64,000 nucleotides of DNA, taken from the NCBI RefSeq assembly GCF_000027125.1, contig NC_017626.1; one strand, written 5' to 3'. This DNA comes from Escherichia coli 042 (GTDB taxonomy: Bacteria; Pseudomonadota; Gammaproteobacteria; Enterobacterales; Enterobacteriaceae). A program made the position numbers and the translations under genes. The notes below the pieces were generated by a model, which ran no database searches, was not told the origin of the DNA, and worked only from the letters and a program-made list of their open reading frames with translations. Below are positions 5,494 through 5,671 of the stretch, piece by piece. Positions within the stretch are counted from its first letter, which is position 1; every line of letters begins with the position of its first letter.

Positions 5494-5671
5494 ATCCAGC
5501 TTGCAATGAAAATAACGCCCGCCTAGTATGTGCGCGTTTTCTTATTCCACAAACTGCAAGGAGGTAAATCATGACAAATCCTTTATCAATGACTCTTTGC
5601 AGACCTTTCCAGGATTAATTCTTTTTTTCTTGCCCTGGATTCGTCTGCCATTTCCTGATTTTTATTCATAA

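Follow-up and report, generated by a model that had tools for sequence, protein, structure and literature searches.

A 15-codon open reading frame (ORF) lies in the leader of the rtcB-prfH operon of Escherichia coli 042, within the 64,000-nucleotide (nt) stretch of DNA analyzed here (contig NC_017626.1 of NCBI RefSeq assembly GCF_000027125.1; referred to below as the window). This short ORF (sORF) is located directly 5' of, and on the same strand as, the gene of a PrfH-coupled RtcB-family RNA ligase (RtcB2), which is followed by the gene of release factor H, prfH. On comparative evidence, the sORF is a genuine leader ORF and an ortholog of PA5471.1, the leader peptide of the armZ operon of Pseudomonas aeruginosa, and it likely serves as a sensor of ribosome performance rather than as the source of a peptide with a function of its own. 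The original prediction, which was made from the letters of the window, proposed a leader peptide with translation-coupled regulation that senses ribosome stalling; the conservation of the ORF, the covarying helices that overlap it, and its homology to PA5471.1 all lend support to this proposal.

Leader ORF upstream of rtcB-prfH

The Shine-Dalgarno (SD) sequence AAGGAGG is separated by the 6-nt spacer TAAATC from the start codon at 5571, and the codons of the sORF are ATG ACA AAT CCT TTA TCA ATG ACT CTT TGC AGA CCT TTC CAG GAT TAA. The near-consensus SD, the spacer, the start codon, the 15 codons, and the position of the stop codon were thereby confirmed from the window sequence as predicted. 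The sORF and the genes of the operon are as follows.

5558 to 5564, plus strand: SD sequence AAGGAGG of the sORF; AAGG(A/G)G(G/A) in all leaders, with a spacer of 6 nt (8 nt in P. aeruginosa)
5571 to 5618, plus strand: leader sORF, 15 codons, MTNPLSMTLCRPFQD, with TAA at 5616 to 5618; PA5471.1 ortholog by comparison
5684 to 6823, plus strand: PrfH-coupled RtcB-family RNA ligase gene (RtcB2), 379 amino acids, MGKYIRPL...; TIGR03073, PRK09588; ATGGGC start in nearly all lineages
6820 to 7434, plus strand: prfH (release factor H), 204 amino acids; TIGR03072; start overlaps the rtcB stop (ATGA)

The RtcB-like/prfH operon predicted downstream of the sORF is borne out by profile matches that all exceed their cut-offs (TIGR03073, 616 bits, and PRK09588, 638 bits, for RtcB; TIGR03072, 329 bits, for PrfH). 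The distance of 53 nt that had been given between the sORF and rtcB needs to be corrected, since it counts to an ATG at 5672; the conserved start, which is also that of PGAP, is the ATG at 5684, 65 nt past the sORF stop. The in-frame ATG at 5672 is 12 nt 5' of this start (it would give MEWF-MGKY...) and is found in many enterobacteria within a conserved AUGGAWUGG; it was rejected as the rtcB start because Citrobacter and Intestinirhabdus lack it and in Pseudomonas it lies in a different frame. Judged from the alignment, the bases of 5672 to 5683 are kept as the 3' arm of a helix (P2, see below) and not for a start codon. By itself, the SD-plus-ATG motif is mildly unusual: AAGGAGG-N4-9-ATG occurs twice in the window versus 0.58 expected occurrences, and at least two occurrences were found in 7 of 100 shuffles. 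The real support for the sORF is comparative.

Homology to the PA5471.1 leader of P. aeruginosa

The armZ (PA5471, RtcB-like) and PA5470 (prfH) operon of P. aeruginosa is under a leader peptide of 13 amino acids, PA5471.1, by which ribosome function is monitored (Morita et al. 2009, according to PMC3516279, PMC12057347, and PMC13041342). A search on ykfJ, the K-12 remnant of the rtcB described here, led to this MexXY literature; ykfJ of K-12 has been reported to be inducible by 4-azaleucine (PMC3516279). The P. aeruginosa leader reads TTGCGC-N17-TAGGAT ... GCAAAGGAGG-N8 followed by ATG ATT CAG TTC TCT ACC CTT TGC AGG CTG CGC CTG GCC TAA, i.e., MIQFSTLCRLRLA; its ORF has the Q3 and F4 residues published for PA5471.1 and aligns with the enterobacterial leaders. 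The E. coli and P. aeruginosa leaders share ...GGTCTGCC...ATGGATTGGATTATGGGCAA, and GCAA(A)GGAGG, CTTTGCAG, the stop position, the promoter spacing, and the 3' elements are common to both. In each case, the leader is 5' of a PrfH-coupled RtcB-family gene and prfH, and a 13- to 15-codon ORF is located behind GCAAAGGAGG with a common CUUUGCAG(G/A) (Leu-Cys-Arg), five codons past the Cys, and the same stop place. A TTGnnn-N17-TAnnnT promoter is found at equal distance, and GUCUGCC and AUGGAUUGG-N3-AUGGGCAA are found near the rtcB start. The enterobacterial and P. aeruginosa forms are linked by intermediates in Pseudomonas sp. (MQALITLCRSRLA) and Budviciaceae (MQQVQHITLCRRIQG). Because the leader sequences, the stop place, the promoter, and the 3' elements match, the sORF is, on sequence grounds, the ortholog of PA5471.1.

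The two leaders nevertheless differ in size. The distance from the sORF ATG to the rtcB ATG is 113 nt in E. coli and 254 nt in P. aeruginosa, the sORF has 15 codons instead of 13, and a G+C-rich insert of approximately 140 nt (between the stop and segment C, defined below), the presumed site of the proposed P. aeruginosa terminators, is absent from E. coli. The gene products differ as well: ArmZ is also an anti-repressor of MexZ, whereas E. coli RtcB2 is a 16S rRNA ligase that acts against colicin E3. Recent work in P. aeruginosa has described that, when PA5471.1 is fully translated, a terminator forms and armZ is OFF, and that armZ is switched ON by an amber codon at Q3, deletion of the leader, ribosome-targeting drugs, and defects in suhB or cca, but not by Q3K.

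Conservation of the leader across genera

Orthologous loci were gathered by the RtcB protein alone, from one genome per species and from contigs with RtcB homologs of 59 to 81% identity. Together with metagenome leaders, the set comprises 27 distinct leaders, which come from Enterobacteriaceae, Budviciaceae, Morganellaceae, Pseudomonas, and metagenomes. A metagenome scan with a pattern of the invariant anchors returned 28 matches, i.e., 24 true leaders and 4 chance matches in an unrelated gene, which were discarded; the metagenome leaders included sORFs of 13 codons and sORFs that end in TGA. Every PrfH-coupled rtcB sampled is preceded by a short ORF whose SD context, start, frame, and stop position are the same, and all of the lineages that were picked by RtcB identity only have it. 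The gene order dinB-(yafP)-rtcB-prfH-pepD is kept in Enterobacteriaceae, and the operon is located elsewhere in Budviciaceae, Morganellaceae, and Pseudomonas. The sORF peptides of representative lineages are as follows.

K. oxytoca: MNTDFQNALCRPSQE
Phytobacter: MTTYFNNSFCRPFQD
Citrobacter: MMTNSKNSICRHSQE
Salmonella: MTLYSLNALCRHFQH
Kosakonia: MTQHALISLCRPFQD
Cronobacter: MTYTTLITLCRLTQE
Entomohabitans: MMTHDLISLCRSRQQ
Limnobaculum: MQQIQLNILCRRIQD
Leminorella (Budviciaceae): MQQVQHITLCRRIQG
Providencia: MSKINQTLCGHCQK
Proteus: MTTINMNTLCGQSQK
Pseudomonas sp.: MQALITLCRSRLA

The sORF frame is open up to the conserved stop in 27/27 leaders, while frame +1 contains stops in 24/27. The sORF has 15, 14, or 13 codons, so that the indels are whole codons; exactly five codons follow the Cys, and TAA, TGA, and TAG are all seen at the one stop site. 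When the freely diverging codons 2 to 8 were shuffled, the joint chance that all 15 diverged lineages stay open was 1.7e-3. Conservation of the peptide and its SD across strains had been named as a check on the predicted ORF: the SD, ATG, frame, whole-codon length, and stop are conserved, and the peptide sequence itself is not. The accompanying reservation that the ORF could equally be fortuitous is not borne out, given its conservation in 27/27 leaders, the covarying helices, and the homology to PA5471.1. From these comparisons, the 15-codon leader ORF is genuine.

Intestinirhabdus alba is the sole lineage with an interrupted leader, in which approximately 150 bp is inserted directly after the sORF stop (1240 to 1500 of its locus). 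The prfH product of this species (2637 to 3071 of the locus) has 144 amino acids and no RF-1 domain match, and the operon may be decaying. In the Salmonella locus, the minus strand of 1180 to 1303 gives a sub-threshold match to Rfam V_AS5 (39.9 bits, E 2.6e-7, gathering score 96); it lies 5' of the leader promoter, where Salmonella is without yafP, and is possibly a repeat element.

RNA structure of the leader

Helices were suggested by RNAalifold and by inspection, and covariation was scored on an alignment of 28 sequences. Four helices, P0, P1, Pi (inner helix), and P2, are formed by the following segments.

5554 to 5563, plus strand: segment A, CTGCAAGGAG, P0 5' arm, overlapping the sORF SD; pairs with 5593 to 5602 (10 bp in E. 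coli)
5593 to 5602, plus strand: segment B, CTCTTTGCAG, sORF codons 8 to 11, P0 3' arm; its GCAG is common to P1
5599 to 5604, plus strand: P1 5' arm GCAGAC, sORF codons 10 to 12; pairs with 5643 to 5648
5608 to 5613, plus strand: Pi 5' arm TCCAGG; pairs with 5634 to 5639, with the stop codon in the loop
5634 to 5639, plus strand: Pi 3' arm CCTGGA, from the covariation analysis
5643 to 5648, plus strand: segment C, P1 3' arm GTCTGC; alternatively pairs with ATGGGC of the rtcB start (P2 extension)
5648 to 5655, plus strand: P2 5' arm CCATTTCC; pairs with 5674 to 5680 with a 1-nt bulge
5674 to 5680, plus strand: segment D, P2 3' arm GGAATGG, weak rtcB SD region; pairs with 5648 to 5655

In P1, 96.4% of the cells pair, and three of the six pairs have compensatory changes (column 59-133: AU, 13; GC, 12; GU, 2), although MAFFT misplaced the P1 3' arm of Proteus in the alignments, which slightly lowered the pair counts. 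The variants by lineage are GCAGAT/ATCTGC, GCAGGC/GCCTGC, GCGGGC/GCCCGC, and GCGGACA/TGTCCGC, and the first three of these represent at least three independent double changes. Pi is 86.4% paired with two pairs that have two-sided changes, and P2 is 82.6% paired with three such pairs; in P2, GGAATGG is partnered by CCAT.TCC and GGATTGG by CCAA.TCC or CCA.ATCC, and the pair counts are lowered because the bulge position shifts between species. The covariation score of P1, Pi, and P2 together was matched by 0 of 500 shuffles, and sliding the partner by 1 to 3 columns reduced the pairing to 17 to 48%. P1 is thus supported by covariation in the alignment, and Pi and P2 are supported more weakly. P0 forms 7 to 10 bp in all 15 lineages, and 90.3% of its cells pair among the 28 leaders; its core, GCAAAG/CUUUGC, is invariant, which places it beyond covariation testing. 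The P2 extension, in which segment C pairs with AUGGGC, is 94.6% compatible, with changes on one side only. P0 and P1 share GCAG and are therefore mutually exclusive.

A search of the leader against Rfam gave sub-threshold matches only (STnc350 and TCL6_3). The STnc350 match, which is on the minus strand (21.5 bits versus a gathering score of 60, E 0.17) and is not found in the Salmonella leader, was rejected as a chance match. Minus-strand ORFs across the same block (MADVTRAK...) were also rejected as coding sequences, because 2-nt length differences in the hairpin loop disrupt their frame.

Constraint on the RNA and on translation

The codons CTT TGC have no synonymous variants across the 27 leaders, even in G+C-rich Pseudomonas, and the change of the sORF Arg to Gly (AGA to GGG or GGA) is compensated in the P1 3' arm. 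The conserved Leu-Cys-Arg is accordingly kept at the nucleotide level, with compensatory substitutions that change the amino acid. The residues that follow the Cys vary (P/H/L/S/R/Q and F/S/T/R/I/C), the seven N-terminal residues are unconstrained, and no conserved nascent-peptide arrest motif was seen among the sORF peptides. Since CTT TGC is invariant and the Arg-to-Gly change is compensated, the constraint appears to fall on RNA pairing and on the translation of the ORF and not on the peptide, and it is probably the act of translation that matters.

Folding with a ribosome and the proposed switch

The leaders were folded with a ribosome-sized mask at each sORF codon, with segment A also blocked when the ribosome is between A and B, and the cost of opening the rtcB ribosome-binding site (RBS) was computed for 5672 to 5687. 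In the predicted ensembles, P0 is high, P1 low, and P2 high without a ribosome; with a ribosome on the early codons, P0 is 0, P1 rises to approximately 0.9 to 1.0, and P2 falls; once the ribosome is at codon 7 or beyond, P1 has fallen to 0 and P2 is again high. The rtcB RBS is predicted to be easiest to open with the ribosome on codons 1 to 5 and 2 to 4 kcal/mol harder to open from codon 6 on in 11 of 13 lineages. The predicted values for the E. coli leader are as follows.

No ribosome: P0, 0.83; P1, 0.42; rtcB RBS opening, 10.7 kcal/mol
Ribosome on codons 1 to 5: P0, 0; P1, 0.94 to 0.98; rtcB RBS opening, 8.6 to 9.6 kcal/mol
Ribosome on codon 7 or later: P0, 0 to 0.10; P1, 0; rtcB RBS opening, 10.9 to 12.3 kcal/mol

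These predictions suggest a switch made of four leader segments, namely A (the sORF SD region), B (sORF codons 8 to 12), C (just past the sORF hairpin), and D (the rtcB SD and start). Without a ribosome, A and B would pair as P0, and pairing of C with D (P2 and its extension) would close the rtcB RBS. A ribosome that translates to the stop would cover B and leave C free to close D, which is again the OFF state. On the other hand, a ribosome that binds the strong SD and dwells at the start or within the first five or so codons would cover A and leave B free to pair with C as P1; withdrawal of C from D would then raise the translation of rtcB-prfH and possibly also the completion or stability of the mRNA. 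The expected inducers would be ribosomes that initiate but decode badly, either because the 16S rRNA is cut in the decoding center or because an inhibitor is bound, and the induced RtcB2 and PrfH would repair or rescue such ribosomes and so close a feedback loop. The model agrees with the genetics of P. aeruginosa, in which a stop at codon 3 is ON, and the logic reported there (full translation OFF, early arrest ON) agrees with the folding scan of the E. coli leader. The model also fits a report (PMC13166195) that ribosomes cut by colicin E3 gather at the start codon in vitro and that RtcB2 relieves this.

Several observations weigh against this interpretation. The energy differences are modest, with a predicted RBS release of 1 to 4 kcal/mol, and the rtcB RBS is costly to open in every state (8.6 to 12 kcal/mol in E. 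coli). Ribosome position has a weak effect in K. oxytoca, Entomohabitans, and Pseudomonas sp. Two-sided covariation is lacking in P0 and in the P2 extension, and the position of the P2 bulge differs among species. In P. aeruginosa, transcription attenuation is the mechanism described, for which a review states that confirmation is still needed; the enterobacterial leader is approximately 140 nt shorter, and its output step may therefore be a different one. In addition, the sORF is unannotated in the MG1655 RefSeq and PGAP records and is not listed in the E. coli small-ORF supplement of Stringer et al. We consider the role of the sORF as a ribosome sensor likely, while the detailed four-segment switch is put forward as a tentative model. 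Within this model, we infer the direction of the switch, that its output is translation and not transcription, and which signal induces it in E. coli.

Alternative explanations

The same leader ORF could instead regulate transcription elongation, with the position of the ribosome deciding read-in to rtcB by intrinsic or Rho-dependent termination in the pyrimidine-rich region of 5619 to 5683. In P. aeruginosa, the ortholog has been presented as an attenuator of transcription, with more armZ mRNA on stalling, and the E. coli leader past the sORF stop is U/C-rich and G-poor. RNA of such composition is usual for Rho entry sites, and Rho is classically triggered when transcription and translation become uncoupled. 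However, a scan found no terminator-like hairpin with a U-run in the E. coli leader, a result that is not decisive because the same scan found none in the P. aeruginosa leader and is thus equally blind there; moreover, the U-run is approximately 10 nt past P1 and does not adjoin it, and P2, which covaries, lies exactly over the rtcB SD, an indication that initiation is the step controlled. We regard elongation as the regulated step as unlikely, and the translational and transcriptional outputs are not mutually exclusive.

The remaining alternatives deny the sORF its role as a translated sensor. If the conserved block were an RNA element only, such as a protein or small-RNA site or a ligand sensor, its SD-like and ATG bases would be structural and the sORF would remain untranslated, which would fit the conservation of its 3' half as nucleotides and not as amino acids, the hiding of the SD by P0 in the free RNA (predicted probability of 0.83), and the absence of the sORF from the Stringer et al. 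supplement. This explanation is very unlikely, as it does not account for the frame that stays open over seven diverging codons, the whole-codon indels, the occurrence of TAA, TGA, and TAG at one site, and the fixed spacing between SD and ATG; in addition, nonsense at codon 3 of the P. aeruginosa ortholog induces the operon but missense at the same base does not, and translation of PA5471.1 is therefore required. A trans-acting micropeptide that functions on the ribosome, RtcB2, or PrfH through the C-terminus ...L-C-(R/G)-x-x-Q-x would explain the nearly invariant Leu-Cys and the fixed distance of five codons from the Cys to the stop. It is nevertheless highly improbable, since CTT TGC without synonymous variation is predicted by RNA pairing and not by constraint on a peptide, the Arg-to-Gly change is compensated in the partner strand, the residues after the Cys are variable, and the N-terminus is unconstrained. 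Finally, an SD-like motif with an ATG is expected by chance about 0.6 times per window, but the conservation from Escherichia to Pseudomonas, the covariation, and the homology to an experimentally studied leader already refute a chance ORF beside such a motif, and its probability is negligible.

Putative promoter upstream of the sORF

A putative promoter of the operon was recovered by the comparative analysis at the following positions.

5501 to 5506, plus strand: predicted -35 hexamer TTGCAA of the operon, 8 nt past the yafP stop
5524 to 5529, plus strand: -10 hexamer TAGTAT, followed by the discriminator GTGCGCG (5530 to 5536); predicted transcription start near 5536

A simple promoter and terminator scan of 5300 to 5900 had returned nothing, the promoter having 8 of 12 matches and being under its threshold, and the scan gave nothing in P. 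aeruginosa either. A TTGnnn-N17-TAnnnT pair is located 40 to 60 nt 5' of the sORF ATG in 24 of 27 leaders, including that of P. aeruginosa; none was scored in the other three (mg24, mg25, and mg34). The variants of the -10 hexamer (TAGTAT, TACTAT, TATTAT, TATGAT, and TAGGAT) differ in the third and fourth positions, which fits a sigma-70 -10 element. Because this pair of hexamers sits at a constant distance upstream, the sORF is probably the first cistron of the operon mRNA; both the activity of the promoter and the start site near 5536 are predictions. The stretch AACGCCCGCC...GCGCGTT was considered as a yafP terminator and dropped, as it consists of the promoter spacer, the -10 element, and the discriminator. 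In most lineages, the sequence directly 3' of the -10 hexamer is G+C-rich (GTGCGCG at 5530 to 5536 of the window, ACGCGCAC, and GCGCGCGA) and presumably resembles the discriminators of stringently controlled promoters.

Comparison with other regulatory systems

The leader resembles translational attenuators of the erm, cat, and cmlA type in having a short leader ORF with its own SD and a downstream RBS in a helix, which an arrested ribosome opens by re-pairing the RNA. Those leaders need a drug and a specific nascent-peptide arrest motif. In contrast, the E. coli leader is unrelated in sequence, its peptide is not conserved, and the first segment of the switch is its own SD and start region, because of which any ribosome that initiates without progressing should induce. 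As in attenuators of the trp and his type, exclusive helices would be chosen by the position of the ribosome, and no translation and full translation would both be OFF; the trp-type logic is shifted by one segment, with the RBS of the leader itself as segment 1. Unlike these attenuators, the sORF has no repeated regulatory codons, no intrinsic terminator was recognizable in the scan, and the signal would be the competence of the ribosome and not charged tRNA. In prfB, the expression of a release-factor family gene (RF2) is likewise tied to the behavior of the ribosome at a short upstream frame, and RF2 is regulated by a +1 frameshift at an in-frame UGA inside its own gene, whereas E. coli rtcB-prfH has a separate leader ORF and predicted RNA re-pairing. 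The paralogous RtcB of the E. coli rtcBA operon is also an RNA-repair ligase induced on damage to the translation apparatus; control of rtcBA lies with sigma-54 and RtcR (according to titles cited in PMC9304027) and not with a leader ORF, and the paralog does not relieve E3-stalled ribosomes (PMC13166195).

Implications

RtcB2-PrfH has recently been shown to rescue and re-ligate colicin-E3-cut ribosomes. In the searched literature on E. coli RtcB2-PrfH, we found no account of how the operon is switched on and none that links the operon to a leader, and the leader may have been noticed earlier in Morita 2006/2009; the search also gave no paper on E. coli that connects prfH to a leader peptide, no paper tying the armZ leader to ribosome damage of the colicin type (colicin E3), and no occurrence of the sORF peptide string. 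The Pseudomonas efflux literature treats PA5471.1 as a peculiarity of MexXY, and a review from 2025 describes its mechanism as 'unique to MexXY'. By its sequence, the sORF is not categorically new but is an unannotated, compact enterobacterial relative in the PA5471.1 leader family. The presence of the same leader before rtcB-prfH in Escherichia, Salmonella, Klebsiella, Citrobacter, Cronobacter, Providencia, Proteus, and others joins two fields, and it provides an unannotated ORF (with putative translation) for the annotation of E. coli and Salmonella, an RNA structure supported by covariation, and a testable model for the detection of ribosomes with a damaged decoding center. Under the model, enterobacterial pathogens with an intact operon should induce rtcB2-prfH in response to ribosome-targeting antibiotics.

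Since the first segment of the switch would be the RBS of the sORF itself, the compact, terminator-less leader might be a specific reporter of ribosomes that initiate but cannot decode, i.e., a self-resetting damage sensor at translation initiation, and the antibiotic induction of MexXY via ArmZ might be a co-opted form of an ancient, gamma-proteobacteria-wide sensor of ribosome damage; this broader proposal is doubtful. The colicin E3 cut at A1493/G1494 of 16S rRNA would produce the matching ribosome state, and RtcB2 and PrfH would repair even the ribosome parked on the leader.

Leader and neighboring genes in E. coli

The 71 nt covering the SD and the sORF is found in 5,390 of 5,426 complete E. 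coli genomes, and this segment is identical (at least 99%) in 5,295 of 5,398 E. coli records, including K-12, B, and O157:H7 strains, in which rtcB and prfH bear a known deletion of approximately 1 kb. In K-12, the sORF is identical, and window position 5665 is followed by an inserted multi-copy repeat of approximately 125 bp, for which the median is 5 places per E. coli genome. We take this insert to resemble an ERIC/IRU element from its AAGTAAGTGACTGGGGTGA motif. The insert, which is located in the P2 loop between the sORF and rtcB, is also present in Escherichia sp. MOD1-EC7003, with a partial copy in Escherichia sp. E1V33, and K. spallanzanii has a different insert of approximately 60 bp at the same spot. 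Of approximately 5,400 leader copies, 15 are on plasmid-typed records, one of them in a strain with an F' plasmid, and these may be F' or chromosome-derived plasmids.

The gene order in the window is dinB, yafN, broken yafO, yafP (which ends at 5493), the RtcB-family gene, prfH, and pepD on the opposite strand. The yafO gene (4633 to 5031), the toxin gene of the dinB operon's yafNO pair, has an internal stop that leaves ORFs of 65 and 59 amino acids, and it is a PGAP pseudogene in the identical strain 118UI. A metal-dependent hydrolase gene (7442 to 8005, plus strand) and a gene for a 93-amino-acid hypothetical protein (8022 to 8303, minus strand) are located between prfH and pepD. The K-12 interval is without these two genes, and the end of prfH there is 56 nt from pepD.

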